Assembly (NCBI RefSeq): GCF_000018105.1
Contig: NC_009925.1
Coordinates: forward strand, 4,050,001 to 4,082,000
Reading direction: 5' to 3'
Length of the DNA stretch: 32,000 bases
Origin: Acaryochloris marina MBIC11017
Lineage (GTDB): Bacteria > Cyanobacteriota > Cyanobacteriia > Thermosynechococcales > Thermosynechococcaceae
A model generated the notes under the pieces. The model made no database searches. It was not told the origin of the DNA and saw only the letters and a list, made by a program, of their open reading frames with translations. Below are positions 1,207-29,194 of the stretch, piece by piece. Both the position numbers and the translations under genes were made by a program. The stretch's first letter is position 1. Every line of letters begins with the position of its first letter.

Positions 1207-1464
1207 ATGATTATCTCTGATTTGAATTACTGTGAAGCTGTTACTGAAGGTCTTGACAAAGTTGCTGGCGGGAGTTTCAGCAAAAAAGTTCACTTAAAAT
1301 TCGTAGTCATTAAAACTTTTGGTAAGCCTGTAGGTAACATCGCTAAAGCTGGTGCAACTGCAGATGCTATTGGTCCAGGCTCTTTTAGTGAGGCCACTAC
1401 TACTACTACTACTGTTGCTGGGTATGGCTCTTCATCCGCTGCTAGCTCAACTTCTGTTTCCTAG
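1207..1464 (+). CDS. double-glycine-leader secreted peptide precursor (bacteriocin-like, cyanobacterial ISDLNY..E..GG type)
   Basis: ATG at 1207 is preceded by aagagga (1192-1198). The N-terminus is MIISDLNYCEAVTEGLDKVAGG|SFSKK. Hydrophobic residues sit at -4 (V), -7 (L), -12 (A) and -15 (Y) relative to the GG, as in double-glycine leaders cut by C39 peptidase ABC exporters. The core is Ala/Ser/Thr-rich (AKAGATADAIGPGSFSEATTTTTTVAGYGSSSAASSTSVS). A C39 exporter is encoded in the same island. Confidence 0.65.
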   Translation: MIISDLNYCEAVTEGLDKVAGGSFSKKVHLKFVVIKTFGKPVGNIAKAGATADAIGPGSFSEATTTTTTVAGYGSSSAASSTSVS

Positions 1465-2691: not shown

Positions 2692-4026
2692 ATGCGAAGA
2701 CTTAACTTAAGCAGAATTAGATTTACCAATCGTGCAGATAGAGTTGACCCTGGAGTCACGATTTTTAACCCTAAAAATTCCTTTGTTAAAACCCTAAGAG
2801 GACGTGACTCCTTGATAGGGACTTCTTCTCTAAATGGTGATTTTGGCTTTGGTGTTTTGGTTGGGGTAGGAGCGCAAGATTTTGGCTCGCTTGCTTCATC
2901 GACTGAGTTTGAGGCTAACTTTAGGCTTCGAACTCAGGGAATTAATAACAAAGGTACGATTGAAACGAATAGCGGCCAGGATGTAATCAAAGGTACTGCT
3001 TCAGCAAATCTATCCGTTTCAACCAATACAGTAGCGGAAGCAATAGCCGTTGCTAAATTTGTTGATACAAGCGTCATCACTCAAGTCCTAGCATCTTTGG
3101 GGGTTGAGGCGAGTGTTATCGGTATCAATAATTCGAAGGCAACTATTAAGACGGGCCTTGGAAGCGATGCCGTTGCTGGCCAAACTGAGGGCAGCATTTC
3201 TGCTACAGCAACAGCCTCTGTAGATGCATCAGCCATTGTCGAAGCGATTGCTGGTGCCCCTATTTCTGATGAGTTAATCGCATTTGCGAATGCCATTGCT
3301 ACAAGTTTAACGGCTGCGTCTATCACGGCCACTGGGATTAAAAACAAGAAAGGACTGCTTTCTACTGGATCAGGTAGAGATAAGCTTACTGCTACTGCAA
3401 CTACGCAATCTGGCACTTTTGCCGGTACGTCTAGTTCTACTTTTTCTAGTGCACCCCCTGAGAATCAAGCATTGGCTTTAGCCGTGGCGGAGGCGGTTGC
3501 GGTGGCTTCTGATATTGCGATCGCAATCGATAATACAGGCGGCAAAATTACCACAGGGAATGGGGCTGATACGATAATTGCCACTGCGGAAGCGACTGGT
3601 AAAGCCTTTGGAATTATCAATACTGGTGGTGTGATTAATACTGGACAAGGGGCTGATCAGATTATTGTTCAGGCTACAGGGGAAGAAGCCTATGGTCTTT
3701 ATGGTGGAAGAGTAAATTTGGGTGCAGGAAAAGATTTATTAACCGGTACCTTTGGTGGCGGTGTGGTTGTCAATGCAGGGAGAGGCAACGATTTTATTGA
3801 TGGTAGTGCTGGTGATTTTGGGAACGCCACATTAAGAGGTGGAAGAGGTCAAGACACCCTCAGTCTTGCGAGTAGCCTTGCAGATTTTTCAGATATCAGT
3901 ATTGGTGCAAATACTCAAGTTACATTCAATCTTGACGGTATGACGCTTGTTACTACGGGATTTGAAGAATTTATTTTAGCGGGTGAAACTTATACTCTCG
4001 CTGGGCTTGCAAGCAATCTGCCATAA
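2692..4026 (+). CDS. repeat protein with RTX-like GxGxDx(I/L) motifs (putative secreted calcium-binding-type protein)
   Basis: 444 aa with about nine copies of a unit such as GINNKGTIETNSGQDVIKGTA, IDNTGGKITTGNGADTIIATA, IINTGGVINTGQGADQIIVQA, LGAGKDLLTG, AGRGNDFIDG and GGRGQDTLSL. These are separated by alternating-Ala segments (AEAIAVAKF, ALALAVAEAVAVASDIAIAI). There is no signal peptide and no GG leader. A ~49-aa non-repeat C-terminal tail follows. An in-frame TGA at 2680-2682 rules out a longer N-terminus. Confidence 0.75.
   Translation: MRRLNLSRIRFTNRADRVDPGVTIFNPKNSFVKTLRGRDSLIGTSSLNGDFGFGVLVGVGAQDFGSLASSTEFEANFRLRTQGINNKGTIETNSGQDVIKGTASANLSVSTNTVAEAIAVAKFVDTSVITQVLASLGVEASVIGINNSKATIKTGLGSDAVAGQTEGSISATATASVDASAIVEAIAGAPISDELIAFANAIATSLTAASITATGIKNKKGLLSTGSGRDKLTATATTQSGTFAGTSSSTFSSAPPENQALALAVAEAVAVASDIAIAIDNTGGKITTGNGADTIIATAEATGKAFGIINTGGVINTGQGADQIIVQATGEEAYGLYGGRVNLGAGKDLLTGTFGGGVVVNAGRGNDFIDGSAGDFGNATLRGGRGQDTLSLASSLADFSDISIGANTQVTFNLDGMTLVTTGFEEFILAGETYTLAGLASNLP
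3517..3524. repeat. HIP1 palindrome GCGATCGC (the only one inside the AT-rich island)
   Basis: Exact octamer read directly. Confidence 0.95.
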
Positions 4027-5364: not shown

Positions 5365-8300
5365 TTACAGCTCTAGTTGTTGCTGAGCTAAGTAAAAATA
5401 GAGCCCTTGCTTTTTGATTAGCTCTTCGTGAGTGCCTTTCTCAACGAGTATTCCTTTATCTAGCACAATGATGCAGTCAGCATTGCGTACAGTTGAAAGT
5501 CGGTGGGCAATAATAAAAGTTGTCCGTTCTCGCGTTAAATGCTTTAAATTTTCCTGAAATCTTCGTTCTGATTCAGTGTCCAGGGAACTGGTAGCCTCAT
5601 CAAAGATGAGTATGGGGGGCCTTTCAAGTAAGGCCCTGGCAATGGCAATCCTCTGTCTTTGCCCCCCGGAAAGATTAGTACCCCACTCACCGACTTTGGT
5701 GCTGTACCCGAGTGGAAAAGATTGAATAAAAGCATGCGCTTCTGCCAGCTTAGCAGTTTCAATAACCTGCTCTAGACTAATCTTCGGTTGATGGAGCGTG
5801 ATATTTTCTTGGATTGTTCCTGAAAATAAAAAGCATTCTTGTTGAACAACTCCAAGTTGGGAACGGAGTGATTGAAGCGATAAATGATTAAGATCGTGTC
5901 CATCTATCGAAATTTGGCCACTGGTAGGCTGGTAAAGCCCTTGAAGTAACTTGACTAAAGTACTTTTGCCAGAGCCACTACGCCCAACTATTGCTAGAGT
6001 TTGACCTTTGTTAACCTCAAAAGAGATATTTTGGATAGCATTTCGCTCTTCTTCTGACTCATAGCGGAAGGTGACATTCTCGAATCGAATATTACCCTCA
6101 ATATTGGGTAAATTAACAGAAGACTTTTGAGATGCTTCCTCTGGTTGATAATCAAAAATATCATTGAGTCTTTCGACAGATATTAAGACTTCTTGTAATT
6201 CGTCCCATAATCCGACTAAAGCAATAATAGGACTGATAACATTGCCTTTCATCATATTAAAAGCAACATATTGACCAACCGTGAGTTGATCTTGAATAAC
6301 TAAAGTTGCTCCAAACCAAAGTAGAGCAGTTCCGCCAATAGTGTTAATTAGGCTACTCAATATACCTAGATTAATAGCAAGTTTTTGCCCTTTAAATTGT
6401 ATATTGAGTTGATGAGTTAATTTATCTTCCCAACGCCACCGGAACTCTTGTTCTACAGCAACAGATTTAACAGTAGAAATACCGGAGAGCATTTCTACTA
6501 AAGTTGAGTTCTCATCGGCAGTAGCATTAAACTGCTCTCGAGATACTTTGCGAAGCAAAGGAGTTGAAACTAATGTCAGTATGATGATTGGGGGAATAAT
6601 TGCTAATACTAATAATGTAAGTTGCCAGTTATAGTACAGCATCAAGCATAAATAAATGATCCCCGTCACTACATCTAGCCAGGCTAGTAATACCTGTCCT
6701 ATTAAAAATTGCTGAATCTTTTCATTCTCTTGAACTCTTGTGATGATATCTCCGACTCTGCGTGATTCAAAAAATTTGATAGGTAAATTGAGAGTATGTC
6801 GGATTAAACCGCTAATCATTGTCAAATCTAATCGATTAGCGAAATAGTTTAAGAGATATGTGCGAACTGCACTTAGCCCCATACCTGCGATGCCGAATAG
6901 CAAAGCACCGATGATCATCACATTGAGAGTTGTTTGGCTCTTACTAACGACTATTTGGTCAAGAATTATTTGAGTAAATAGCGGTGAAATAATGCCAAAA
7001 ATTTGAATTAAGATAGACGCTAAGATGATTTGCAGTCCTAAAGAGCGATACGGTAAAAGTAGATTGAAAAATCTACCTAAAGAGCGCTTTTCACCAGGAA
7101 CTGCATATAATTGTTCAGTTGGGTCTAGAAGAAGCGCAAAACCAGTCCAGCTCGCTAAAAATTTTCGGCGTGATATTTGGTATTTACCTTTTGCTGGGTC
7201 AGCAACTAAAACCTTGTCTCCTTTAACCCAGTAAACAACAATAAAGTGGTCTCCTTCCCAATGTGCAATCCACGGATTAGCTTCATCGGCTAAACGATTT
7301 AAACTGGCTCGTACAGGTCGGGCATGGTAACCAAGAGATTCTGCGGTACCCGCTAAATTTTTAAGTGAAGTACCTGAACGCCATACACCGGTTATTTCTC
7401 GTAACCAACTGAGACTAAACCGTTTGCCCCAGTACTGACTAATCATGGCCAGACAAGCAACCCCACAGTCAGACGAACTTTGCTGCTCGATAAATGGATA
7501 TGTGTTCCATAGAGTGCGACGAGGTTTTAGCGGTTTAGGGAAATCAATCTGTTGTGGATGCTCTATGTTCTGCGAAATGGAAGATGGATTGGACTGACCC
7601 TTTCTAACTCTCTGAGGGGTAGACCGAACCAAATTTCGCTTCCAGGATTTAGTGCGTTCGGTGTTGTAAATTCTACGAGGGTTAGCATTTAGTGCTGTGG
7701 TGGGTGATGGACGGCCTTCTTGCACTAGCAAGGACAATTGAGGCGCAATGGTGGTGGCAGCCTCCCAATTTTCTTTTGGTAATTGGTATATCAATAATTC
7801 AGTTTTGCTAGAGTTACTGACCTCAGTCGTGTCAGGATACCCCCAAGTAAATCCAGGGTGAGATTCTTGATCCTGAATCTGACCTTGCAGTAGCCAAAAA
7901 CGACCCAAGTCAGCGGGCGCTAATTCAGTAACAGGTGTACCAGGGAGGATTTTCTTCTCTACGATATATACACAAAATTTTTCTAACTTATGGGTTGGCA
8001 GTCTATTTAAGCTTGTAAGGGTTTTAAAGAAAATTAGACATTGACGATCTTGAATAGTTGTAGCCAAATGACCTTGTAGACTTGGTAACTGTGCTAAAAA
8101 AGGTTGCAGTACCTTAAAAGAAATCTTTGCAATCTGTGCTTCACTCGCAGCGAATGCTTGGTAAGGTAGACTGGCCTCACGGTAATTTGAGTCACCTCCA
8201 AAAAAAACACCCTCTTCCAATAATTGAATGGATAAATTTTGAGCTTTTTCGGAGACAGCACTTACAAGCCTAATTTTCCCCTGAGTTATCAGATATAAAT

Positions 8301-8517
8301 CTTGGTAATTATCCTTTATTTGAGTAGTGAATTCATCGATGTCGTAAACAGCATCTCCAAGTTGTAGATCAAGTATCTCAAATTGAGCACTTAGTTCACT
8401 GATAACAGTATCTGAGTGCGATATGTTACATATTTTAGATAATAGACTGGGAAGCTTAGATAGTTCTACTGGAATTTGAAAAGGGTGGTTGTTATCTGAA
8501 ATTCTTAAATTATCCAT
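5365..8517 (-). CDS. peptidase C39 domain-containing ABC exporter with N-terminal cNMP-binding-like extension (HetC-like)
   Basis: 1050 aa. Residues ~1-330 carry two degenerate cyclic-nucleotide-binding-like segments (LGDAVYDIDE...LYLITQGKIRLV...EEGVFFGGDS; ILPGTPVTEL...RFWLLQGQIQ). The C39 motifs are intact: QQSSSDC351GVACLAMI, H424FIVVY and D440P (codons checked at 7465-7467 and 7246-7248). A six-helix ABC membrane domain follows. The nucleotide-binding domain has Walker A GRSGSGKST, signature LSGGQRQRIAIARAL, Walker B ILIFDEATSSLD and H-loop IIAHRLS. Confidence 0.9.
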   Translation of the reverse strand: MDNLRISDNNHPFQIPVELSKLPSLLSKICNISHSDTVISELSAQFEILDLQLGDAVYDIDEFTTQIKDNYQDLYLITQGKIRLVSAVSEKAQNLSIQLLEEGVFFGGDSNYREASLPYQAFAASEAQIAKISFKVLQPFLAQLPSLQGHLATTIQDRQCLIFFKTLTSLNRLPTHKLEKFCVYIVEKKILPGTPVTELAPADLGRFWLLQGQIQDQESHPGFTWGYPDTTEVSNSSKTELLIYQLPKENWEAATTIAPQLSLLVQEGRPSPTTALNANPRRIYNTERTKSWKRNLVRSTPQRVRKGQSNPSSISQNIEHPQQIDFPKPLKPRRTLWNTYPFIEQQSSSDCGVACLAMISQYWGKRFSLSWLREITGVWRSGTSLKNLAGTAESLGYHARPVRASLNRLADEANPWIAHWEGDHFIVVYWVKGDKVLVADPAKGKYQISRRKFLASWTGFALLLDPTEQLYAVPGEKRSLGRFFNLLLPYRSLGLQIILASILIQIFGIISPLFTQIILDQIVVSKSQTTLNVMIIGALLFGIAGMGLSAVRTYLLNYFANRLDLTMISGLIRHTLNLPIKFFESRRVGDIITRVQENEKIQQFLIGQVLLAWLDVVTGIIYLCLMLYYNWQLTLLVLAIIPPIIILTLVSTPLLRKVSREQFNATADENSTLVEMLSGISTVKSVAVEQEFRWRWEDKLTHQLNIQFKGQKLAINLGILSSLINTIGGTALLWFGATLVIQDQLTVGQYVAFNMMKGNVISPIIALVGLWDELQEVLISVERLNDIFDYQPEEASQKSSVNLPNIEGNIRFENVTFRYESEEERNAIQNISFEVNKGQTLAIVGRSGSGKSTLVKLLQGLYQPTSGQISIDGHDLNHLSLQSLRSQLGVVQQECFLFSGTIQENITLHQPKISLEQVIETAKLAEAHAFIQSFPLGYSTKVGEWGTNLSGGQRQRIAIARALLERPPILIFDEATSSLDTESERRFQENLKHLTRERTTFIIAHRLSTVRNADCIIVLDKGILVEKGTHEELIKKQGLYFYLAQQQLEL

Positions 8518-8551
8518 CTGAATTTAGATTCGTGTTATTCAGTTTTTTGTG

Positions 8552-8971
8552 CTAAAGGTTTGGATTACTGCTCTTTTTATTCCACATAGAAAGATAGTTT
8601 TTGGCTAGCCAGTTATTGCTTGTGCCACCTGTTACCTGAGTCGATTTTTCTCGAACCTCTTCTAGGTATTCGAGATCTTGCATGTATCTGGGTGAGTTTG
8701 ACGGGGTTATAAGTGAATTGGGTTCAAAGTCTTTACAGCTCGCTTTGTCTTTAGATGTTTGATAACTCAGTAGGCTTTCTTTTTTGATTAATCTGTTGTA
8801 GGTGCGATAAGGAATATAGTGAAGTGGGTTATATCCCAGAAAACGCAGCATTAAGACGCAAGCCCAAGAATATTTCCCCATTAGTATGGCTTCAATCACT
8901 TGATTGAATTGTTCGTAGGTGATTTGTTTATCAAAATCAGTCCCAGAGTGAGTAGATAAGTTATGATTCAT
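8552..8971 (-). CDS. HetP-family protein
   Basis: The N-terminal block [45 protein letters not shown] matches, from my memory of the family, the conserved HetP N-terminal domain including its Cys (Cys38 here). The C-terminal ~60 aa are not conserved-looking. The gene ends 34 nt upstream of the HetC-like exporter start. Confidence 0.7.
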
Positions 8972-9348
8972 TCTATTAATCCAATTTTTTGATAAAGCGA
9001 TGCTGTAATTAAAGCTGTATGATGCTATGCGTACTTATTCGTAGATAAGTAGTTTAATTTATGGTGCATTTTGATGGGTTATGAGCCTATTTGTTTTGCT
9101 TCTAATTTTTAAAAAGTTTATTGTTTTATATTGATGCTTTTTATGAAAAATTGAACTTGAAATAAAATAAAAACCTTTTAGCATGATTTTTTGCTTTCTC
9201 TTGATATTATTTCCTGTGATCTGTAGATGGATATTTGAATTTTATAAATTAGGATGAAAACCACTCGAAGACTGTTCAGTAGCCGGAGATGACTGAAAGA
9301 AGATGATGTATTCTATTCATTGATTAAGAGATGAGAATTCAAGCAATG

Positions 9349-10902
9349 TTATTTTTTCGTATTGCCACTCTTCAGTTGCTTGATTGGATCTAATAAAACA
9401 TCGATAATACGACGCTGACGGATAACAATATTAGCTGTTGCCGATTGGCCAGGTCTAAATTTAATTCTCTTGTTATTATCTACGATGTGATGACGCTCTA
9501 ATTCAACTTCAACTTGGTAAACATTTCCTAGCTTCGGATCATATTTTGAGTCTGATGAAATTGAAGATACCTTACCTGGTACTACCCCATAATCTTGATA
9601 TGAATAGGCATCAAATTTGACTTTCGCTGGCTGATCCTTTTTTATAAAGCCTGCTTCCTTATTGGGTAAAACTGCAGAAATTATTAAAGGAGTGTTGTGA
9701 GGTGCAATTTCAGCTACAGTTTGCCCTGAATTGACTACCTTACCTTCATTCTTTAAATTAAATGATAAAACAACACCATCAATAGGTGCTTTAAAGAGCT
9801 TTTGGTCTAGAGTCGCTTTGGCTTTGAGCATCTGATTCTTGGTTTCAGATACTTTAGTTTTTGCCTGGGTGGTTTCTAGTTTAAGCTGGTCAATTTTTTG
9901 GTATGCTTCTAGCTTTAGTCGAGTTCTTTCCGCTTTATTCCGATTTAACTCTGCCTTTAGTTGTTCAACTTGTCGATAAGCAGAATAGAGCTCTCCTTGA
10001 TCTTGTGTCATTTTTGCAGCAAGAGTTCGCATCGATTGCTCATTTTGAAAGATTTGCTGGCTGACACTAGTAATGTCTTGTAATTTACTTTCTGTGATCT
10101 GACTCTGAACTTGACTAAGATTTTGATTGGCCTGGAAGACTAACTCGCTAGAGATAGCACCTTGCTTTTTCAAAGACTTTAATTTTTTCACACGACCTTG
10201 ATTGGATTTGAGGTCTAGCTCTAATTGCTTTACTCGGGATCTTGATAAGTTTGACAAGAGTTTTAAGCGTTTATGCCTGGCATTGTAAGCATTAAGCTCT
10301 TGCTTTTGTTGTATTAGCAACTGAAGTAGAGTATCTGCCCTATCTTCAGCTGATTTTATGGCAGACTCTTGACCCAAATTCTCTGAGGTAGAAATTCGTT
10401 GATGAGTTTGAGCTTCTAAGTAAACTTTATTGAGTAGAGATTGTTTTTGCTTTAGCTCTTGTTGGTAGCTAGACAGCATTTGTTCTAATCGCTTGACTTC
10501 TTTTTTATCTAAAGAAGTATCTAGTTCAGCAATGACTTGTCCAGCCGCAACAGTTTCTCCTTCTTTAACCGCAATTCTGCTGACCTTCCCGATAGCAACA
10601 GATTCAACCTTATATGTCTCACCTTTTGGGACTAGCTTTCCTTTTGCCGTCCCTATATCTTCTATTTTTCCTAGCCAAGCCCAGCCGAGAAAAGCAAGTA
10701 AGAATACTAATCCGCTCGAAATAATTCGGAGAGGCATCTCTGCCGGAGGCTGATCTAGGAGTGATTGTAATGATGCAGACCAATCAATAATGTCATTGTT
10801 TTTATATACAAAATTTTGTATTTTAGGCTGATTTAAGCTTGATCTTTGATCGTTTTTTTTGCCTAATTCTTGATCAGAAATAGTCAAAACCTTTGCCCCC
10901 AA
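9349..10902 (-). CDS. HlyD-family periplasmic adaptor (membrane fusion protein) of a type I / bacteriocin export system
   Basis: It has a single N-terminal TM (LRIISSGLVFLLAFLGWAWLG), a lipoyl-like hairpin (GKVSRIAVKEGETVAAGQVIAELD), a ~230-aa coiled-coil, and a beta-barrel C-terminal part (PIDGVVLSFNLKNEGKVVNSGQTVAEI). The start is uncertain because the ORF opens with TTG at 10902 and no ATG lies upstream of the TM. Confidence 0.85.
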   Translation of the reverse strand: MGAKVLTISDQELGKKNDQRSSLNQPKIQNFVYKNNDIIDWSASLQSLLDQPPAEMPLRIISSGLVFLLAFLGWAWLGKIEDIGTAKGKLVPKGETYKVESVAIGKVSRIAVKEGETVAAGQVIAELDTSLDKKEVKRLEQMLSSYQQELKQKQSLLNKVYLEAQTHQRISTSENLGQESAIKSAEDRADTLLQLLIQQKQELNAYNARHKRLKLLSNLSRSRVKQLELDLKSNQGRVKKLKSLKKQGAISSELVFQANQNLSQVQSQITESKLQDITSVSQQIFQNEQSMRTLAAKMTQDQGELYSAYRQVEQLKAELNRNKAERTRLKLEAYQKIDQLKLETTQAKTKVSETKNQMLKAKATLDQKLFKAPIDGVVLSFNLKNEGKVVNSGQTVAEIAPHNTPLIISAVLPNKEAGFIKKDQPAKVKFDAYSYQDYGVVPGKVSSISSDSKYDPKLGNVYQVEVELERHHIVDNNKRIKFRPGQSATANIVIRQRRIIDVLLDPIKQLKSGNTKK

Positions 10903-12637
10903 AACCTTTTTGTAAAAAATATTCTACTTTATCGCAGATTATTGGTCAAAACATTTTTATTTTAGACAGAAAATGATTTAGATGCATCAAAAATTTAATA
11001 TTTTCTTATTTTTTGAGTGGATTTCTTTTCAAACAAAGATATTTTCATATACAAAAAACTTCTAATGAATCTGATGTGATTAGATTGAGAAGTTCGAGAT
11101 TAAGAATAGCCCTAAAATGATTCCCTTTGTTGGTTAGGGATACGTGATTACCAATAAAGGCAACCTTTTACTAGGCTTGATACTTTTGCCATCAGAGGAT
11201 GAAATGTTATTATCCACCCTTGGATATAAATAATTAGGCAGCACTATTTGACAATCCCTATAGTTTTCTGGAAAAGCCTTGGAAAACTTATAAGCACTGT
11301 CAATTCACACGTTGAATTCGATATCTCTATATTATTTAGAGCTAATGCATGTTGTAGTACCTAACTAGATGACTTAGAACAATATCCTCTAGATGCTTCA
11401 ATCAATCTTATTCACATATTCCATGGCTATACACCATTCCTATATGTCTAGAAAAGGTGGCCCTAGCCATTTATCTTTAGTTCTGAACACTTCCATCTCT
11501 CTTCACTATTTTTGTGAAAAGCTGAACAAATAGTTCTTTGGCCGTTGGCTTGGGGAATTTATTCGAATGTAGTAGACGTAGAAAATCTATAAGTTTAAGA
11601 ATAGTCTAATGTAGAAAATTCTTGGTTCATATATCAAACAAACTAAAAAAACATTCTATCTAGATTGCTTGTGAACTTATAGATTAACCATATTTCGACT
11701 AGATTGGATTGATTTTTTGGCGTTGGTAAACACATTTTGAATTTACCTTTTGTTTGAGCAATTGAATAGTTTTTCTTTACAAAAGTTATCTAGGTTATTT
11801 TATGTTTTATTGATGTCATATATTTTTTTATGACTTTAAATGACAGGTAGTTATTATTCTTTTTTTAACGTATATTGAAAAATATTTATACCTTTTGTAT
11901 CGTAAAATAAGAATTTTGTAAAATGAAATTGATGAAGCCTGGCAACTTCTTGACTACTCAGCGCTTAGATTCTATAGGTGACAGTAGTTTTAGGAGATTA
12001 AAAAAAATTGTATGAGGTAATAGTTTAAAGCTAAAGCCATTATTTTAAGAGGATTATTTTATCGAAGCCCATACTGATTTAAATCAAATGCTTCATAAAG
12101 AAGAGTGCAAATAACGTAATGTTCAACCTCAAAAAGGAATAAAAGGATATAGGCTGATTCGTTGTATCAGATTAGCTAAACTGTTGATTTTGCCATGAGA
12201 TTATAATTTTATCGATAAATAATTCTCAATGGTAACTCTTGTGAAGACTATATAAATTAAGCTAGGTGTATTGATAACTATGGATGATGCGTTTACTTCA
12301 TGCAGCCATGATAAATAGACGCTTGGCGGTAGATTGATCATTTATCTAATTATTGATTAAGGCTCTCTTAGACAGGCTTCAACTGAAGAGAGCATTTTAA
12401 TATCAGTAATATTGGATGCTTGAACTAAAGAAAGGGTAGATTCAATATATATTTAACTCTTACTGATACTAGTCTTGATTTTAGTAGTAAAAACTATCTC
12501 TATTATTTATGCCCACTTAAGGCCAATAATTCAGTAGATAACTTAAAATATTGCTTGGCTCTGTTGGCTATAAACTTTATTCGCTTGATGCTTGCTTCAG
12601 TAAATAAATCTGGATAATGGAATTATGTAATCCTGTC

Positions 12638-13487: not shown

Positions 13488-15773
13488 ATGCTCGATTCAA
13501 TGTCTACACTGCACCTGTTTGGAATTCGCCATCATGGACCTGGTTCAGCTCGGAGTTTGCGACAGAGCTTAGAAAACCTAGAGCCTGATTTGATTTTGGT
13601 AGAGGGGCCACCGGATGCGGCTGGCGTGATTGAGCAGGTCGTTAGCCCGGACATGAGTCCTCCTGTGGCTATTTTGATTTATGCACCGGAGCAACCTCAA
13701 CAGGCCGTTTATTATCCCTTTGCGGTTTTTTCACCCGAATGGCAGGCGTTAGATTATGGTTTCCAACACCAGGTCCCGGTGCAGTGGATGGACTTGCCCC
13801 AGACGCATCAACTGGCCTTGCGACAGCAGCTCGATCAACAGTATGAACCGCCTGAGGTAGAGGGCGATGCTGGGAATGTGTCTCCTGAATCGTCTCTACC
13901 CGAAATTCGGCAGGATCCGCTGTTTTGGTTAGCCCAAGCGGCTGGATTTAATGATAGTGAACGCTGGTGGGAGCGGATGGTAGAACAGAGATCTGAAACC
14001 ACCGATCTATTTCCTGCCATTGTAGAAGCGATGTCAGCACTGCGATTAGAGATGGAAAAGGATCATCCGCTAGATCTCAACAACAATCGGGATTATCGAG
14101 AAGCCTTACGAGAAGCCTACATGCGGCAAACCATCCGCAAAGCGAAGAAGGCAGGGTATGAAAAAATAGCGATTGTTTGTGGGGCTTGGCATACGCCTGC
14201 TTTAGTGGAACCTTTCCCGCCTGCTAAGCAGGATGCAGCTTTACTAAAAGGCTTACCTAAACTGAAAGTAACTTCAACCTGGATTCCCTGGACCTATGAG
14301 CGGCTGGCAGATCGCAGCGGCTATGGAGCAGGGATTGCTTCGCCGGGCTGGTATCACCACCTATGGACGGCATTGGATCAACCCACGGTTCGCTGGCTCA
14401 CCCATGTTGCCCGCTTGTTGCGGCAGGCGGATGTCGATGCCTCTTCGGCTAGTGTGATTGAAGCGGTGCGGCTGGCCAATTCCCTAGCTGCACTGCGAGA
14501 TTGTCCGACCCCCGGATTGTCTGAATTAAACGAAGCGGCCAAGACGGTCCTCTGCTTTGGGGAGGAACTGCCGTTGCAGCTGATTCATGAACGATTGATA
14601 ATTAGCGATCGCATGGGGCAAGTTCCAGACGATACGCCGATGGTGCCTTTGCAGGTGGATTTGCAGCGTTGGCAGAAGAAGCTGCGCCTTAAACCTTCGG
14701 TTACGCCCAAAGAGCTGTCTCTGGATTTGCGAAAGCCGAATGATTTGTTGCGATCGCAACTTTTGCATCGCCTCAATTTATTAGGGATTCCCTGGGGCCG
14801 CCCTACCTTTAGTCGAGGTAAAGGAACTTTTAAAGAAGCCTGGATATTGGAGTGGCAGCCTGAGTTTGAAATTGCCTTGATTGAAGCGGGTCAGTGGGGC
14901 AATACGATTGAGGCTGCCACGACCGCCTATACCTGTGATCTGGCGAATAATGCCGCAAATCTGCCGATACTAACCGAGCTATTGGATCAGGTTCTCTTGG
15001 CCGATCTCCCGGACGCGATTACCCAACTCATGGCTCGTTTGCAGGCAGAAGCAGCGGTTGCCAGTGATGTGGTGCATCTGATGTCGGCCTTACCGCCCTT
15101 GGCCCAAATCTTGCGGTATCGGGATGTGCGTCAAACGGATACAGAGGTTGTCGCCCATGTGGTGGATGGCCTAGTCACTCGCATCTGTATTGGCTTACCA
15201 GGGGCTTGCGCGTCTCTGGATGATGACGCGGCAGCCATGATGGATAAACAAATTATGGCGACCCATAGTGCCATTAATTTGTTGCAAAATCAGGACCATC
15301 AACAGATGTGGTGGATGGTGTTAAAACAACTGGTGAATCGAGAAAGTTTACATGGATTGCTGAGTGGTCGTTCCTGTCGGTTATTGCTGGATGGAGGACA
15401 GTTTGAACCATCAAGAGCGGCCCAACAGTTGAGTTTGGCGTTATCCCTAGCGACGGACCCGACCCAAGCTGCTGCCTGGATTGAAGGCTTCCTCAAGGGT
15501 AGTGGCCTGTTGTTACTCCACGATCAGGAGATTTGGCAGGTCCTGGATCAGTGGGTTTGCGAATTGGCACCAGATACCTTTGTGACGCTGTTACCGTTGT
15601 TGCGGCGGACCTTCTCAACTTTTCCGGTAGCAGAACGGCGGCAGATGGGCGAGCGAGTCACGCAAGGAGTTGTGGAGACTGGCTTACAGGGCTGGGACTC
15701 GGAGGTATTGGATTGCGATCTCGCTGAAACGGTTTTGCCACTTGTAGCAAAGCTCTTGGGGTTTTCGTTGTAA
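13488..15773 (+). CDS. large conserved hypothetical protein, DUF5682-like
   Basis: 761-aa ORF with clean coding composition. The N-terminus LHLFGIRHHGPGSARSLRQSLENLEPDLILVEGPPD resembles, from memory, the conserved start of DUF5682-family proteins. An alternative start exists at Met5 (13500). Confidence 0.6.
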   Translation: MLDSMSTLHLFGIRHHGPGSARSLRQSLENLEPDLILVEGPPDAAGVIEQVVSPDMSPPVAILIYAPEQPQQAVYYPFAVFSPEWQALDYGFQHQVPVQWMDLPQTHQLALRQQLDQQYEPPEVEGDAGNVSPESSLPEIRQDPLFWLAQAAGFNDSERWWERMVEQRSETTDLFPAIVEAMSALRLEMEKDHPLDLNNNRDYREALREAYMRQTIRKAKKAGYEKIAIVCGAWHTPALVEPFPPAKQDAALLKGLPKLKVTSTWIPWTYERLADRSGYGAGIASPGWYHHLWTALDQPTVRWLTHVARLLRQADVDASSASVIEAVRLANSLAALRDCPTPGLSELNEAAKTVLCFGEELPLQLIHERLIISDRMGQVPDDTPMVPLQVDLQRWQKKLRLKPSVTPKELSLDLRKPNDLLRSQLLHRLNLLGIPWGRPTFSRGKGTFKEAWILEWQPEFEIALIEAGQWGNTIEAATTAYTCDLANNAANLPILTELLDQVLLADLPDAITQLMARLQAEAAVASDVVHLMSALPPLAQILRYRDVRQTDTEVVAHVVDGLVTRICIGLPGACASLDDDAAAMMDKQIMATHSAINLLQNQDHQQMWWMVLKQLVNRESLHGLLSGRSCRLLLDGGQFEPSRAAQQLSLALSLATDPTQAAAWIEGFLKGSGLLLLHDQEIWQVLDQWVCELAPDTFVTLLPLLRRTFSTFPVAERRQMGERVTQGVVETGLQGWDSEVLDCDLAETVLPLVAKLLGFSL
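14605..14612. repeat. HIP1 palindrome GCGATCGC
   Basis: Exact octamer read directly. Confidence 0.95.
14750..14757. repeat. HIP1 palindrome GCGATCGC
   Basis: Exact octamer read directly. Confidence 0.95.
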
Positions 15774-23137: not shown

Positions 23138-25681
23138 TTACTTAATACGACGACGGAAAAGGAATTGCCCTCGCTGGCCTGGATCGACTTGTCCGACCTC
23201 ATTTTCGTATTTCTGGACTTTGGTATCATCGACCGGATCCGATGTGGTCAAAGGATTGGGATCGTCACTATTCGTGAAGTATCTCACCACCCCTTGATCC
23301 GCACTCGTATTTTGCTGATGGTTCGAGAAACTCGCCCAGTTATTCGTTGTACCACCTACAGTGGCCGTCCCATCTTCCACCAAGGTTAAGTCAGGAATCG
23401 TCAGACCGATATTGCCATTCCCCACCACCGGAGTCGAGATATTCTCGTAAGTAATTCGGTACTCAAGCTGATAATCTAGCTGGATATTAACACCATCCAA
23501 AATAGTTTGGTCAGAGGTCCAGGCTTGAATAACCTCCCCATTGGCATCCAAGACTTGGACTTCTTTGATGACTTGTAGAAAGCCGGTATACAGGCGGTCA
23601 ATCGTCACGTTATTGGTGGTTTCCCCTGTGAAACCTGGATTATTGATCGGATCGTCATCCGGAAACGCCACGATTGGAATAGGAATCTCGTCATTGACTC
23701 CTACACCATCGGGTAGATCCACCGTCACGGAATAGTTAATTGTTCGCCCTGCAGGTAAATCACCCGCATTGACATGCCTGGGTGTACCATCAGCAATGCC
23801 TCCAGTTGTACTAGAGAGCAACTCAAAAGTATTGGTGGTACTATTCCATTGATAGGTCGCGGTTCGCTCATCGCCATTCCCCGGATTGCCATCTGGATCG
23901 TAGGCAATGGTTACGACCGTACCATTAGGAATATCGGCATCTGTACCATATTGCCCCGTCAATGTACTGTCATCAGCTCCCTCCGCCTGAGTGGGCGAAA
24001 TCGGCTGAATCGTAACATCAGCAATAAACCCGGTACTAGCCGGATTTTGAACGGAATTGTTAAAGGTAGATGGAGCTGGATCGAACGTGTCCGTAGGACC
24101 TAAATTGGGAGGAATATCAGTGGATTGGTTTGTAAAATCATCATCGTCATCTGATGGCCCCCCTGCCCCAGGCACCCCATCAGGACCGTTGAGAATATCG
24201 TCGCTAGCCGCCACTTCTCCTAAGCGGATCACATTGACTTCACCATTCGGGCCTGTCCCAGTATTTCCATTGCCTGCGTCAGTGCCCTGCGTTACTGGAT
24301 TAGCGACTCCAGTATCAGTTGTAGGGTTGTAGTTACTGCCAGTTGGGCTAGGAGGCGTTTGATTATCGTTGAAATTATTGGGATGAGAATCCCCCGATTC
24401 ATCATAAATAACTTGGTTAGATGAATCGCCAACTGTTTCTCCAAACACCTGCGCTAGATTATTCACCTGTCCACCTAGGGGTGGCAATCCAGATGTAACT
24501 ACGGTGAAGCGAAATGGCGTTACGGTTGTCCCTCTACCCAGAACAGGTCCACCCACAAAAATAAAACCAAGCCGTGTCACTGAGGTCAGAGGAGGTGGCG
24601 TTGTGACCCAAGCTGCAGCTGTTGCTGGTGTACTGGTTGGTGTAGTGGTATAAACAGCTTGCCAATTTGCTGGAATGGTATCAATTGAAGAAAGCTTTGT
24701 CCCTACCGGAATAGCATCAGAGACTAAAATTCTGGGAGTCGATATACCGTTCAAATTAATCGGCGTTCCCTCTAAATTAGCAGGAACAAAAGCGGCATTC
24801 GGTGAGGTATTCTCAACGGTTAGGGCTAAATCATAGGTGATTAAATCATCGTTAGCTGTCGGCGTAGGTCCTGGGTTGAGATTAGACGCGGTCTTAGCTA
24901 TCGTTGCCAATGCAATCGGTCTAAGTGAGCTTCCAAAAGGAATACTATTAGTCGCACTGGCTTCCCGCTCACCATTTTCTGGGGCACCATTGCTTGGATT
25001 AGCATCAACGGTACGAAGGTCATCTGCTCTAGCACCATCTGAGTTATCGGGTTGGTTTTGAGTACTTGCACTATTGTTATTGGGGCCTGTGTTCCCTAGT
25101 GTGACGCCTACATCAGCACCAGCTGGTATATTCGGAGCTGGGGTCCCAGTTACACGAACCTTTAATACCTGATCAGGATCTAGATCTGCTAAACCGGGTA
25201 TCGACAAGGCACTCAAGTTAGAACCACTTGCAGGTACAGTTGCCAGTACTGTCCCAGATGCATTCACAATCTGCACTGTACTGGGAACAAAATTCTCAGC
25301 ATTTAGGTTGTTCGTACCAGGGATAAATAAATTAGTAGGGGCATTACCAATATTGGTGACATCAAAGGTAAAGGTTAAAGTATCCCCAGCATCAACAGAG
25401 CCACCATCTAAATCAGCAAATCCGGATGGCACTGCCGATAAGCCTGCTACTTCAGCAACGGTAACTGTAATTGTATTTGACGTTGCATCAATGGTTGTTG
25501 AGGAAGCAGGATCCTCCTTGTAGGTGCCTGTTGCTGTATTGGTAATCTGCTCCCCTGCAGCAGTTCCTAAAGCTAAGGCAGGGAAAAGAGGCTGAAGAAG
25601 GCTACTAGCCAAAATGGCGGCAATGGCGAGAGGGCTAATTTTACGTGGAGAAGTATAAGACTGAGGTCTATCGTCATTCAT
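23138..25681 (-). CDS. large secreted DUF11-type repeat protein
   Basis: Preferred ATG at 25681 (MNDDRPQSYTSPRKISPLAIAAILASSLLQPLFPALALG, signal-peptide-like); the ORF track extends to 25756. DUF11-like units are present (ITNTATGTY...TSNTITVTV, VDAGDTLTFTFDVTNIGNAPT). Long Thr/Pro/Asn/Gly-rich stretches and an acidic DDDDD run follow. The C-terminal end is basic (FLFRRRIK). Confidence 0.75.
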   Translation of the reverse strand: MNDDRPQSYTSPRKISPLAIAAILASSLLQPLFPALALGTAAGEQITNTATGTYKEDPASSTTIDATSNTITVTVAEVAGLSAVPSGFADLDGGSVDAGDTLTFTFDVTNIGNAPTNLFIPGTNNLNAENFVPSTVQIVNASGTVLATVPASGSNLSALSIPGLADLDPDQVLKVRVTGTPAPNIPAGADVGVTLGNTGPNNNSASTQNQPDNSDGARADDLRTVDANPSNGAPENGEREASATNSIPFGSSLRPIALATIAKTASNLNPGPTPTANDDLITYDLALTVENTSPNAAFVPANLEGTPINLNGISTPRILVSDAIPVGTKLSSIDTIPANWQAVYTTTPTSTPATAAAWVTTPPPLTSVTRLGFIFVGGPVLGRGTTVTPFRFTVVTSGLPPLGGQVNNLAQVFGETVGDSSNQVIYDESGDSHPNNFNDNQTPPSPTGSNYNPTTDTGVANPVTQGTDAGNGNTGTGPNGEVNVIRLGEVAASDDILNGPDGVPGAGGPSDDDDDFTNQSTDIPPNLGPTDTFDPAPSTFNNSVQNPASTGFIADVTIQPISPTQAEGADDSTLTGQYGTDADIPNGTVVTIAYDPDGNPGNGDERTATYQWNSTTNTFELLSSTTGGIADGTPRHVNAGDLPAGRTINYSVTVDLPDGVGVNDEIPIPIVAFPDDDPINNPGFTGETTNNVTIDRLYTGFLQVIKEVQVLDANGEVIQAWTSDQTILDGVNIQLDYQLEYRITYENISTPVVGNGNIGLTIPDLTLVEDGTATVGGTTNNWASFSNHQQNTSADQGVVRYFTNSDDPNPLTTSDPVDDTKVQKYENEVGQVDPGQRGQFLFRRRIK

Positions 25682-26758
25682 GTCGTCTTGGAGTTCTTGG
25701 TAATGGGGAAAACAGAAAATCAGGATCTGCAGCAAGGAATCACCGTTAACTTGCAATCAGGTAATATTGATCACTTCAAGTACGAGCTGGACCCTTGCAC
25801 TTGAGTTTTAGAGTGCCGTTTTTCTCAATTTCATAACGAAATCAGAAAGTCAGGTTACTTTCCCTGGCCTATTAGACATTCAGGGCCAATATGGTCTTGC
25901 AACGTTAGTGCTAATGATGCATATGAGTTGTCAGATCTACACAGATCTAGGGTTCCCATTGAGAAAAATTAAAATGACATTTCAATACTGACACTTCATT
26001 TATTTAGATATAGTTAGCTTTTTCTAGCTGTTCAAGAAGATCATAATATTGTTGAATATTGAATATTTCTTGATATGATATCTCACTCAAAAAAATTAAA
26101 TTATTGTCTAATTGATATGAGTAATATGTGATTGCATTGTAATTCAAAATTATTTTTAATGAGGATCGATTTTTGAAATATCTATTCTATCTAATTATAT
26201 TGTTCAACGACTTCTGATAGAGATATGAGTTTGGATTCTCCTCTTGTAGATTCGACTCAGAAGATTATTCAGACTTGACCAGGGAAACCAGCAGGTTTGC
26301 AACTTAATGCTGACTATATATGCTATGAAACAGATTCTCAAAGTCTTATGTAGACAGGAGTATAAACTTATAATAGAAAGTGTTTTAGTTGCAAGTTCTG
26401 CTATGAAAGTTGCAGGAAATCATAGGGCACTATGTTTAGAGTTAAAATAAGACAGGTTATTTGATTTATCCATCTTTATTTCTAGTTTATGTAGGTATTT
26501 TATTTAAAGATTTCCTTTTCTTGTAAAAATATTTTTTAGATTTTACTGCAATATTTGGTCTGTTTATAAAATGTTGATATTGTAAATGAATGACATGTTG
26601 AATCTGCCTTGTAAGGAAAAATGATCAATATATTGTATCGAAATATTGTTTAGATAGAGTTGGCGAATTGTGTAGTGTATAGCTAAGATAGCCATGCCTG
26701 CTACTCAATAAAGAAATTATAAATTTGTCTCGAGCTCAAGTGAAGTATTGAGGAGAAC

Positions 26759-27028
26759 TTATACTTCTGAACTTGTAAACTGAGCAAGGAGCTGTGCCCC
26801 TGTCATGCCATGAATTTTATTGGCTAAGCTGTAGAGTGCAGGTTTCTCATCAATAAAAACTTGATGATCAAACAGAAATTCTTTGCTGTTAGTAAACCAG
26901 CTCACAGGGACAAAGTATTGCTGTTTCTCCTTCAAACGATAAAGCAGGTGTATGCCACAGGTCTGATAAGATCCTCGTTCAGCCCAATCAGAAGGCTTTA
27001 AAAATAGAAATTTTCGCTGGGTTTTCAA
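26759..27028 (-). CDS. hypothetical protein (possibly N-terminally truncated)
   Basis: 89-aa ORF opening with TTG directly after an in-frame TGA. No family recognised. It sits at the edge of an AT-rich block. Confidence 0.3.
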   Translation of the reverse strand: MKTQRKFLFLKPSDWAERGSYQTCGIHLLYRLKEKQQYFVPVSWFTNSKEFLFDHQVFIDEKPALYSLANKIHGMTGAQLLAQFTSSEV

Positions 27029-27225
27029 ATGTCATTTCTGTACCACACTCTGTTGAAAAAAATTGTCCTCCAGACCATTGATGACAGGCTGAACAATGAC
27101 ATGCCCCTACCTGTCTTAGCAACTAAATGAATTGCTCCATAAAGACGACTGAGCTTCCCGCAAGTTTGACCTATGGACGCCCATGGAAATACTTGGACAT
27201 TATAGGGATGTTTATTCCCTGAACA

Positions 27226-28398
27226 TTATAAATTTGAGTACGATAAACCTTTCTGTAGGCTTCGAAGAGCGTTTCCTGGTCGCAGTAGTAAACTTACCCC
27301 AATGAGGCCAGTCACAAGATTGGGGGTCCAAGCTCCAAACCACGGTGAAATAATGCCTAATTGGCCCCAGGCATCGGCGATGAAAATTAGGATATATTGC
27401 CCCAATACCAATATCAGGCTTATACCAAAGCCATTGCTAACAGCTAATCGACGCTGACTGATGCCTAAAGTACTCCCGACTAGCCCAAAGATGATAACTG
27501 TAAATGGGAGTGCAATTTTGCGGTGAATTTGGATTGCTAAGGCCCTGATTTGAGTTGGACGACCTGTTTGTCGGAGTTTTGTGAGTAGCTGCTGTGACTG
27601 GGCTAGGGTCACCCCATTGGGGTTGATGTCAGAATCAGTGAGAGACAATTGGGGCGGCAGCTGAAGTTCCTGTTTTGAAAACTCAATGATATGTTTTTCA
27701 GCTCCATCAGTCCCTATGGCATAGATAGAGCCATCCTTAAATATCCAGATATTGCGCTCTGCATTCCATGTGGCTGATTGAGCGATTAAGACCTGCTGAT
27801 TGTTGGGCAGAGTCCAATCGATGACGGTGATGCCAGATAAGGTTTGCCCCTGGCCAGTTTGAGCATAAAAAAGGCGGCGCAGCTCTTGATTGGGACCAAT
27901 ATCTGGATAGACGATGTGGCGGCCTTGGAGTGAAAATTGACCTGCTTGTAATGTTTGGCGTAGTAGATGGTGTGAGTGAGCTTGACTCACAGGAACGAGA
28001 CTTTCGGTCAGTCCGAACATGAATAGGCAGGCCAATAGTGAAAAACCTAGACAAGAGCCAATCAAGCGGTTTAAGTGCAGCCCTGCGGATTGGAGAGCCA
28101 GCAATTCACCATCACTCTGCAACCGAGATAAGGTCAGCAAACAAGCCAATAATACCGACATGGGAATGGCAAGACTGACAAAGTAAGGCAGTTGTAAGGT
28201 GAGGATTGATAGTGCGATCGCAATCGGTAACCGTGCTTCTGACACCTGCCCTAACAGATCAAACAAGACCGCCGCTGAAACACCAATAGATGAGAAAGCC
28301 ACCATGCCCCATAAAAAAGGTGGCAGCAATTGTCGAAACAGATAGCGATCGACTAGAGCCAATCTTGACCACCCTACAAACCTGCTCACTCTAAACAT
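27226..28398 (-). CDS. LptF/LptG-family LPS export permease
   Basis: VDRYLFRQLLPPFLWG is the typical YjgP/YjgQ start. There are six hydrophobic segments and a large periplasmic loop. The gene lies directly downstream of lptB. ATG at 28398 is preferred; the track's TTG at 28425 would overlap lptB by 4 nt. Confidence 0.8.
   Translation of the reverse strand: MFRVSRFVGWSRLALVDRYLFRQLLPPFLWGMVAFSSIGVSAAVLFDLLGQVSEARLPIAIALSILTLQLPYFVSLAIPMSVLLACLLTLSRLQSDGELLALQSAGLHLNRLIGSCLGFSLLACLFMFGLTESLVPVSQAHSHHLLRQTLQAGQFSLQGRHIVYPDIGPNQELRRLFYAQTGQGQTLSGITVIDWTLPNNQQVLIAQSATWNAERNIWIFKDGSIYAIGTDGAEKHIIEFSKQELQLPPQLSLTDSDINPNGVTLAQSQQLLTKLRQTGRPTQIRALAIQIHRKIALPFTVIIFGLVGSTLGISQRRLAVSNGFGISLILVLGQYILIFIADAWGQLGIISPWFGAWTPNLVTGLIGVSLLLRPGNALRSLQKGLSYSNL
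28214..28221. repeat. HIP1 palindrome GCGATCGC
   Basis: Exact octamer read directly. Confidence 0.95.
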
Positions 28399-28421
28399 AG
28401 GATTTGGGCCTAGGGTAACGA

Positions 28422-29150
28422 TCAACGTTGAAATTGATTTCCCAAGTAATACTGACGAACATAGGGATCATCATAAAGCTCTGCAGGAGTGCCTGCAGCC
28501 AGGATACTCCCTTCCCTTAAGATATAAGCCCGATGGGTGATCGCCAGGGTTTCGCGGACATTATGGTCTGTGATCAAGATACCTAAGTTGCGATCGCATA
28601 ATCGACCAATCATGGTTTGCATCCCTGAGACAGCAATGGGATCAATGCCCGCAAAGGGTTCATCCAAGAGGAGAAATCTTGGCCCCTCTTTGCCCATAGC
28701 TAACACCCGTGCTAATTCTGTCCGGCGACGCTCCCCTCCAGACACTTGCATCCCCAGCGTATTCGCCACATGCTCCAGCTGAAATTCTGCGAGTAAACGG
28801 TCTAACCGAGAGGACCATTGTGGGCGGGGCACCCCCGACTGTTCCATGACCATCAATAAATTGTCTCGTATACTCAGATGACGAAAAATACTTGGCTCTT
28901 GGGCAAGATAGCCAATTCCTAACCGGGCTCGCTGATGCAACGGTAATGTTGTGATCTCTTGACTGCCCAACCATACGGTTCCATGGGTTGGCCTTTCTAA
29001 TCCCACCGCAATATAAAAGGAGGTGGTTTTGCCTGCGCCATTGGGCCCCAGTAGCCCTACAATCTCGCCCTGACCTGCAGACAGAGAGACATTCTGCAAG
29101 ACGCTACGGCGGCGATAAGATTTGCTAATGTCTTGTAGGCGAATACGCAA
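28422..29150 (-). CDS. lptB: LPS export ABC transporter ATP-binding protein LptB
   Basis: GEIVGLLGPNGAGKTTSFY, GIGYLAQEPSIFRHLSIRDNL, VSGGERRRTELARVL, LLLDEPFAGIDP, ITDHNVRETL and the C-terminal VRQYYLG are LptB hallmarks. The TTG start is preceded by gaggag. Confidence 0.9.
   Translation of the reverse strand: MRIRLQDISKSYRRRSVLQNVSLSAGQGEIVGLLGPNGAGKTTSFYIAVGLERPTHGTVWLGSQEITTLPLHQRARLGIGYLAQEPSIFRHLSIRDNLLMVMEQSGVPRPQWSSRLDRLLAEFQLEHVANTLGMQVSGGERRRTELARVLAMGKEGPRFLLLDEPFAGIDPIAVSGMQTMIGRLCDRNLGILITDHNVRETLAITHRAYILREGSILAAGTPAELYDDPYVRQYYLGNQFQR
28590..28597. repeat. HIP1 palindrome GCGATCGC
   Basis: Exact octamer read directly. Confidence 0.95.
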
Positions 29151-29194
29151 GGGGACTCCTCGTAGATTGTCAGAAAAGTCCTCAGATAATCAGG

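Follow-up and report, generated by a model that had tools for sequence, protein, structure and literature searches.

Organization of the exporter locus

We analyzed a stretch of 32,000 nucleotides of DNA from Acaryochloris marina MBIC11017 (NC_009925.1, positions 4,050,001 to 4,082,000), hereafter the window, in whose own numbering all coordinates are given. The window contains a putative export module composed of three consecutive open reading frames (ORFs) of the minus strand, which code for an HlyD-family protein, a HetP-family protein, and a long-type ATP-binding cassette (ABC) transporter carrying a C39 cysteine-protease domain (Table 1). The first-pass annotation of this DNA had described an hlyD/hetP-like/hetC-like trio at positions 5365 to 10902, and all three ORFs were found where it had placed them. 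Its statement that the window holds no TolC-type outer membrane component was also borne out by family scans, in which the TolC and OEP outer-membrane-factor families had no match among the non-overlapping window ORFs of at least 100 amino acids (aa) and the partial ORFs at the window ends.

Profile searches matched HlyD_3, Peptidase_C39, ABC_membrane, and ABC_tran in the products of the trio, and cNMP_binding below its gathering score. The HlyD-family protein scored above the cutoff of NCBIfam model TIGR01843 (type_I_hlyD; 225.7 bits for a cutoff of 208.65) and matched Pfam HlyD_3 with an E value of 1.7e-22. The start of its gene is uncertain, the 517-aa form beginning with a TTG codon and gene callers giving 512 or 517 aa. 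A hydrophobic segment near its N terminus (approximately residues 60 to 80) reads as a membrane anchor. The HetP-like protein is exactly identical to ABW28993.1 (AM1_4010), for which PF28069 (HetP) is on record, and scored 116 bits against the HetP_family model NF037966 (cutoff, 45), the HetP domain spanning residues 8 to 64; a sequence search of the PDB with this protein returned no meaningful match. A SurA-like gene, which is convergent with the ABC transporter gene and lies outside the interval of the first-pass annotation, specifies a protein with a match to Pfam Rotamase, at 24.7 bits against a gathering score of 21.7, and one to SurA_N_3. Exact look-up identified this protein as a peptidylprolyl isomerase of A. 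marina MBIC11017, and its score against TIGR04500 ("putative peptide maturation system protein") was 59 bits, below the cutoff of 180.

Table 1. Genes, domains, and motifs of the putative export module and its associated genes (window coordinates; CNB, cyclic nucleotide binding; AF2, AlphaFold2; pLDDT, predicted local distance difference test)
Feature	Position	Strand	Basis
HlyD-family membrane-fusion (periplasmic adaptor) protein, 517 aa	9349-10902	-	TIGR01843, HlyD_3
HetP-family protein, 139 aa, AM1_4010	8552-8971	-	NF037966; exact identity to ABW28993.1
Internal double-glycine motif of the HetP-like protein, residues 99-116	8624-8677	-	Fits KIxDLxYLEx10GG (PMC3140520)
23-residue tail after the HetP Gly-Gly	8555-8623	-	Translation
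Long-type peptidase-containing ABC transporter (HetC-like), 1050 aa	5365-8517	-	Pfam domains, homologues
First CNB-like domain, residues ~40-145	8083-8400	-	Weak Pfam match, AF2, Foldseek
Second, more degenerate CNB-like domain, residues ~165-262	7732-8025	-	AF2, Foldseek; no Pfam match
Variable linker, residues 269-321	7555-7713	-	pLDDT <50; unconserved in family alignment
C39 cysteine-protease domain, residues 340-468; Gln345, Cys351, His424, Asp440	7114-7500	-	Pfam, E = 9.5e-39
SurA-like/PpiC-type peptidyl-prolyl isomerase, 249 aa	4576-5325	+	Pfam Rotamase, SurA_N_3
Candidate cargo gene, 85 aa, AM1_4005 ("hypothetical protein")	1207-1464	+	Leader fits DLxYxEx10GG

C39 protease and ABC core of the transporter

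In the 1050-aa protein, two CNB folds and a linker precede the C39 protease, which is followed by a transmembrane domain of the six-helix type and then by a nucleotide-binding domain. The first-pass annotation had credited it with a complete C39 catalytic set. In the translation, QQSSSDCG begins at residue 345 and supplies Cys351, DHFIVV begins at residue 423 and supplies His424, and VADP begins at residue 438 and supplies Asp440. In an alignment of residues 327 to 476 with solved structures, including those of LahT and ComA, Cys351, His424, and Asp440 fell on their counterparts in the peptidase-containing ABC transporter (PCAT) PCAT1; two engineered PCAT1 chains, 7n87 and 6v9z, have Ala in the column of Cys351. 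Gln345 was aligned with the conserved Gln located six residues ahead of the catalytic Cys of PCAT1 and is taken to be the oxyanion-hole residue. All four residues were invariant in 78 of 78 relatives, these being the family members from 80 genomes that were used for counts of invariance. The AlphaFold2 model of residues 1 to 480 had a mean pLDDT of 79, and its C39 domain superposed on PCAT1, ComA, and LahT at 1.3 to 1.9 Å in Foldseek comparisons. Thus, the claimed Cys, His, and Asp do occupy the canonical C39 positions.

Because the Cys, His, Asp, and Gln residues align with those of PCAT1 and are invariant, and because the modeled fold superposes, alignment and model indicate that the 1050-aa protein is a cleaving PCAT and not a transporter with an HlyB-type C39-like domain. 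The first-pass annotation had favored the same assignment, and it holds in that Cys351 is present and aligned with the catalytic Cys of PCAT1. Protease function has been shown experimentally in two relatives, PteB (PMC4997328) and HetC, in the latter for its N-terminal domain (PMC10986499).

The remainder of the protein is that of a type I ABC exporter in its Pfam matches (ABC_membrane, residues 497 to 756, E = 8.7e-49; ABC_tran, residues 829 to 977, E = 1.1e-38) and in its intact ATPase motifs (Walker A, GRSGSGKST; signature, LSGGQRQR; Walker B, ILIFDEATS). The best NCBIfam model was TIGR01846 (type_I_sec_HlyB; 666.2 bits for a cutoff of 725.55) and TIGR01193 (bacteriocin_ABC) scored 508.7 bits for a cutoff of 523.85, placing the protein outside both curated models.

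Tandem CNB-like domains at the N terminus

The approximately 330 residues located ahead of the protease had been described as containing two degenerate CNB-like segments. Structure prediction was needed, since a sequence search of the PDB with the N terminus gave at best an E value of approximately 1, to CRP/FNR proteins. In the model of residues 1 to 480, two CNB folds were predicted, in keeping with that description. Approximately 270 columns of this model aligned with the tandem-CNB regulatory subunits of protein kinases A and G (PKA and PKG) with an E value of approximately 1e-10 (Foldseek).

Confidence was mostly high in the first CNB region, for which Pfam cNMP_binding (PF00027) matched residues 68 to 142 with 21.6 to 22.8 bits (gathering score, 27.5). 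The same Pfam family was matched by nine of nine family members tested, with a best E value of 1.5e-12. Inspection of the phosphate-binding cassette revealed Gln120 at the position, assigned from the sequence, of the cassette arginine. Among the 78 family members, this position is occupied by Arg in 38, Gln in 20, and Lys in 12.

Residues 150 to 270, which encompass the second domain, were also modeled separately, with a pLDDT of 87. Essentially all of the top 50 Foldseek matches of this model were CNB or CNB-homology domains, including those of HCN2, MloK1, PKA (CNB-B), and PKG, with E values from 2.6e-4 and template-modeling scores of 0.43 to 0.69. Residues W208, L209, and G212 of this domain are invariant in 78 of 78 relatives. 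Remote homologues align no further than approximately residue 262, and the linker that follows (residues 269 to 321) is probably disordered.

The N-terminal region is confined to this family. A search of a word-indexed database with the N-terminal 336 residues alone returned three matches, and an exhaustive profile-free search (111 representative clusters, mostly fragments) found residues ~20 to 262 to be conserved solely within one cyanobacterial family. Export through this protein may be ligand gated, as the first-pass annotation had suggested. The published accounts consulted on these transporters make no mention of a second CNB fold, PMC3140520 describing one CAP_ED domain, to which the second fold is a modest, incremental addition.

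Conservation of the module among cyanobacteria

Full-length homologues of the 1050-aa protein with 59 to 68% identity are found in many non-heterocystous cyanobacteria (Pleurocapsa, Xenococcus, Myxosarcina, Hydrococcus, Crocosphaera, and Cyanothece). Related loci were collected by scanning one genome per species with an alignment of the N-terminal region, which yielded at least 594 loci, 80 of which were kept for the counts reported here. An hlyD gene accompanies the ABC gene in 68 of the 80 loci, and 67 loci have all three genes (ABC, hlyD, and hetP-like). The next gene after hlyD, on the same strand, is hetP in 64 of these 67 loci. The ABC gene is located before the hlyD-hetP pair, after it (as in the A. 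marina window), or in divergent orientation. Thirty of the 80 loci, the Anabaena hetC-hetP locus among them, also have a SurA-like homologue. That the three-gene synteny extends this widely is itself a modest, incremental addition to what has been published.

The locus of Anabaena minutissima contains the ABC and hetP genes without hlyD, which is the published hetC-hetP arrangement, and the HetP encoded there is very similar to the alr2818 sequence given in the 2011 supplement. The A. marina protein is 47% identical to the hetC-locus protein of A. minutissima over 1027 aligned positions, and its pairwise identity to its hlyD-linked relatives is 53 to 66%.

A double-glycine motif shared by HetP-like proteins and small precursors

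The internal double-glycine motif of the A. marina HetP-like protein has counterparts in related loci, in which 54 of 72 HetP-like ORFs contain DL-x-[YC]-x-E-x10-G-G. The motif is located about 35 residues past the HetP domain and is followed by a tail of 6 to 64 residues. Four Moorena loci (L012, L014, L022, and L023) have two hetP-like genes per transporter, a 101-aa gene without Gly-Gly upstream of the ABC gene and a 144-aa gene with the motif after hlyD.

A six-frame scan of the window for the motif uncovered a second occurrence, at the N terminus of an 85-aa ORF located outside the interval of the first-pass annotation. This ORF is preceded by a GAGGA Shine-Dalgarno sequence 7 nt upstream of the ATG and encodes a protein exactly identical to ABW28988.1 (AM1_4005). 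The leader comprises 22 residues (MIISDLNYCEAVTEGLDKVAGG) and the core 63 residues, which are rich in Ala, Ser, Thr, and Gly. AM1_4005 is 48 and 39% identical to leader-bearing small ORFs located beside hetP/hlyD in Kastovskya (L010) and Oscillatoria PCC 10802 (L045), respectively, and has the core motif ADAIG in common with them. Stand-alone leader-bearing small ORFs, often in tandem copies, were present in 33 of the 80 loci. The strict leader motif occurred 60 times in the window and the 80 loci (1.2 million translated residues), compared with none when the sequences were reversed and 0.1 on average when they were shuffled. Tandem arrays of three to five near-identical small precursor genes with a MIISDLxxLE...GG leader are located close downstream of hetP in Stenomitos (L037, 8825 to 9900), a Leptolyngbyaceae metagenome-assembled genome (L043, 7064 to 8640), and Okeania (L073, 9668 to 11000).

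Small precursors of the AM1_4005 type matched no Pfam or NCBIfam family, AM1_4005 is absent from the supplements of PMC3140520, and literature searches on leader sequence strings and locus tags found nothing relevant. AM1_4005 is thus an unlisted candidate precursor, a modest and incremental addition. As would be expected of a PCAT, a predicted double-glycine substrate gene is located near the transporter gene, in addition to the internal motif of the HetP-like protein.

Relationship to known transporters

The A. marina locus is not new to the literature. In 2011, Wang, Fewer and Sivonen included AM1_4010 (CP000828, 4058552 to 4058971) among the HetP-type precursors of group I (Table S3 and Figure S1 of PMC3140520). 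These authors described a long-type transporter with an N-terminal CAP_ED domain, its HlyD and SurA partners, and the HetP motif KIxDLxYLEx10GG, SurA being a stated component of cluster groups I, II, and VI (PMC3140520). By its gene complement, the A. marina locus fits a bacteriocin-type cluster of group I; it has in common with the clusters of groups I and II the long-type C39 ABC transporter with CAP_ED, HlyD, the SurA rotamase, and the HetP-type double-glycine precursor. It would differ from them by the second degenerate CNB fold, the available text on these clusters describing one CAP_ED domain.

The resemblance to HetC that the first-pass annotation had pointed out is supported by the identity to the A. 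minutissima hetC-locus protein and by the published domain layout of HetC, which is likewise cNMP-C39-ABC (PMC10986499). In Nostoc/Anabaena sp. PCC 7120, HetC (alr2817) also has a length of ~1040 to 1050 aa and adjoins a hetP gene (alr2818) encoding a Gly-Gly motif. The two systems differ in that A. marina has an hlyD gene, whereas none is present near hetC in Nostoc, in gene order (hlyD-hetP-abc versus hetC-hetP), and in that the A. marina protein is closer to its hlyD-linked relatives than to the hetC-type protein. To our knowledge, A. marina MBIC11017 is unicellular and forms no heterocysts. The role of HetC in heterocyst differentiation does not carry over to this host, in which hlyD is moreover adjacent. 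Rachedi et al. (2024) reported that HetC's N-terminal domain is an active cysteine protease, that in vivo the protein depends on its protease and ATPase residues as well as on its cNMP domain, and that the cNMP domain binds ppGpp (Kd of 59 µM, in vitro) but not cyclic AMP (cAMP); no membrane-fusion gene and no gene for a double-glycine leader were present near hetC (PMC10986499). Corrales-Guerrero et al. (2014) found that overexpression of hetP compensates for a mutation of the HetC peptidase.

Among other PCATs, PteB (Synpcc7942_1133) of Synechococcus elongatus PCC 7942 is also from a unicellular cyanobacterium and has been described as similar to HetC in domain organization (PMC4997328). The catalytic Cys of PteB is needed for secretion of the GG-motif proteins EbfG1 to EbfG4 (Parnasa et al. 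2016, PMC4997328), and the PteB/EbfG system differs from that of A. marina in that no HetP-family gene was reported there. PCAT1 of Clostridium thermocellum has the same ABC core and C39 domain (full-length sequence E value of approximately 1e-138). Identity to the A. marina protein in the protease domain is 36 to 40% for PCAT1 and LahT and 26 to 28% for ComA. Unlike the A. marina protein, PCAT1, ComA, and LahT have no N-terminal CNB domains and act on substrates with short classical leaders; PCAT1 and ComA, both of Gram-positive origin, work without HlyD or TolC partners. The HlyB/HlyD/TolC system includes an HlyD-type adaptor, a similar ABC core (E = 2e-144 to HlyB chains), and an outer membrane partner encoded elsewhere, as is presumed for A. 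marina. However, the C39-like domain of HlyB-type transporters lacks the catalytic Cys (PMC10986499) and is catalytically dead, and HlyB substrates carry C-terminal signals, whereas the A. marina protease is intact.

Proposed mechanism and alternatives

What we observed of the genes present, the folds of their domains, the catalytic residues, the conserved motif, and synteny leads us to propose that the A. marina locus probably encodes a tripartite processing exporter, which would recognize DLxYLEx10GG, cut after Gly-Gly, and export the C-terminal fragment. Proteins bearing the leader would be bound and cleaved by the cytoplasmic C39 domain. The ATP-driven membrane domain would then hand the C-terminal fragment to the HlyD adaptor, and the fragment would leave the cell via a TolC-type outer membrane channel encoded elsewhere in the genome. 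Two proteins of the window are candidate cargos, namely, the AM1_4005 precursor, whose N-terminal leader is of the classical kind, and the HetP-like protein. In the latter, a cut at Gly-Gly 115-116 would release the 23-residue tail while the HetP domain stays in the cell. Through the tandem CNB domains, a small ligand probably modulates protease or transport activity, and a guanine nucleotide such as ppGpp would be likelier in this role than cAMP. The SurA-like isomerase is probably a maturation or chaperone factor.

Several points weigh against this proposal. The support gathered for the A. marina locus is computational. The 377-bp gap between hlyD and the hetP-like gene (8972 to 9348) leaves co-transcription unsupported, whereas these genes abut or overlap in most related loci, and a promoter and terminator scan gave nothing above shuffled sequences. 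AM1_4005 is located ~3.9 kb from the ABC gene, on the opposite strand and with two genes between. The first CNB domain falls below the Pfam threshold and has Gln at the key arginine position. The motif DLxYLEx10GG is devoid of the hydrophobic residue found at position -7 of classical double-glycine leaders. The pattern is not fitted by 18 of the 72 HetP-like ORFs, approximately three of which are near-variants and the rest mostly short forms; HetP is therefore not always cargo. Finally, Anabaena HetP has been reported to reside in the cytoplasm, to bind DNA non-specifically, and to enhance sigma-HetZ-dependent transcription (PMC13342950), a role that needs no export.

The last two points are also those that speak for a different partition of roles, in which the HetP-like protein would not be cargo but would act in the cytoplasm as a regulator inherited together with the exporter, such as a DNA-binding protein controlling or responding to export, and only the small precursors would be cut and exported. 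Most of the HetP-like genes without the motif still follow hlyD, and stand-alone leader-bearing ORFs were found in seven of the nine loci whose sole HetP-like gene lacks it. We nevertheless consider this explanation rather unlikely. The internal HetP motif equals the precursor leader in both residues and spacing (I-20, Y-15, L-14, E-13, V/I-11, V/I-4, GG), and its maintenance across distant genera would be difficult to account for if one protease did not recognize both. The regulator and cargo roles are in any case compatible, since cleavage could release the regulator. Another enzyme might also do the cutting, the M16 peptidase of group II clusters having been suggested as the one acting on the HetP motif (PMC3140520), which would leave the C39 exporter with other substrates. 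This appears very improbable for A. marina, in which the M16 peptidase family had no match among the window ORFs scanned. The motif ends in Gly-Gly and doubles as the N-terminal leader of small precursors, a hallmark of C39 substrates, and the linked transporters show no variation in their C39 catalytic residues. The C39 domain is favored as the HetP-processing enzyme because one and the same motif serves as the N-terminal leader of the small precursors and as the internal HetP site. HlyB/HlyD-type type I secretion, with the C39 domain reduced to a docking module, would have as its substrate the neighboring 444-aa repeat protein (2692 to 4026), recognized by a C-terminal signal. It is consistent with the top NCBIfam rank of type_I_sec_HlyB, the type I secretion class of the HlyD protein, and the glycine/aspartate-rich repeats of the 444-aa protein, with their faint HemolysinCabind match (E = 0.01). 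We regard it as the most improbable of these explanations: the type_I_sec_HlyB score is under the cutoff, the Cys, His, Asp, and Gln residues are present and invariant in contrast to the Cys-less domains of the HlyB type, and a relative of the 444-aa gene was detectable in only one of the 80 related loci.

The processing-exporter proposal can be extended beyond A. marina, though here we would put the chances slightly below even. HetP-family proteins may be physiological substrates of HetC-type exporters, and DLxYLEx10GG the dedicated leader of this transporter clade, placed either at the N terminus of small proteins destined for secretion or after a HetP domain in a fusion. Cleavage of HetP would then yield, in one step, a regulator that stays inside the cell and a peptide for export. 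Being present in the unicellular Acaryochloris, such a cut-keep-send module would be older than heterocysts, and its recruitment for heterocyst commitment would have come later.

Other features of the window

The region upstream of hlyD (10903 to 12637) is a 1.7-kb stretch of ~31 to 33% G+C content (GC) with ORFs of at most 46 aa and with neither an Rfam match nor a leader motif; comparable long AT-rich gaps are found at 500 to 2690 and 25757 to 27225. A search for leader peptides in the gaps 8972 to 9348 and 10903 to 12637 found none. The coding GC of the export genes is 34 to 44%, and that of most other window genes is 45 to 52%. An Rfam scan of the window detected tRNA-His alone (416 to 489), and repeat scans revealed nothing relevant.

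The gene-poor, AT-rich stretch that contains AM1_4005 also harbors a second small Ser-rich ORF of 85 aa on the plus strand (1852 to 2109), a putative gene with no Gly-Gly leader and no family match. The plus-strand gene for the 444-aa protein encodes an Ala/Gly/Thr-rich polypeptide with C-terminal GxGxD-type repeats and no leader motif, which looks like a secreted repeat protein and probably lies outside the export module. It was rejected as a cargo candidate because it is not conserved across the related loci. Unlinked to the export module are a large DUF5682 protein of unknown function (13488 to 15773, plus strand; E = 2e-296), a large DUF7925-containing protein, also of unknown function (23138 to 25756, minus strand), an LptF/G-LptB-LptA-like lipopolysaccharide transport set (27226 to 29605), and two glycosyltransferases.

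Significance

The system was already known, down to the A. marina locus itself, its architecture and the HetP Gly-Gly motif having been published in 2011 (PMC3140520). The biochemistry of the homologous HetC followed in 2024 (PMC10986499), and the locus by itself adds little. The synteny and the shared leader do bear on the question of the HetC substrate. Since the three genes are conserved together in 67 of the 80 loci and the leader motif is identical in both types of protein, HetP and AM1_4005-type proteins offer concrete test substrates for these exporters.

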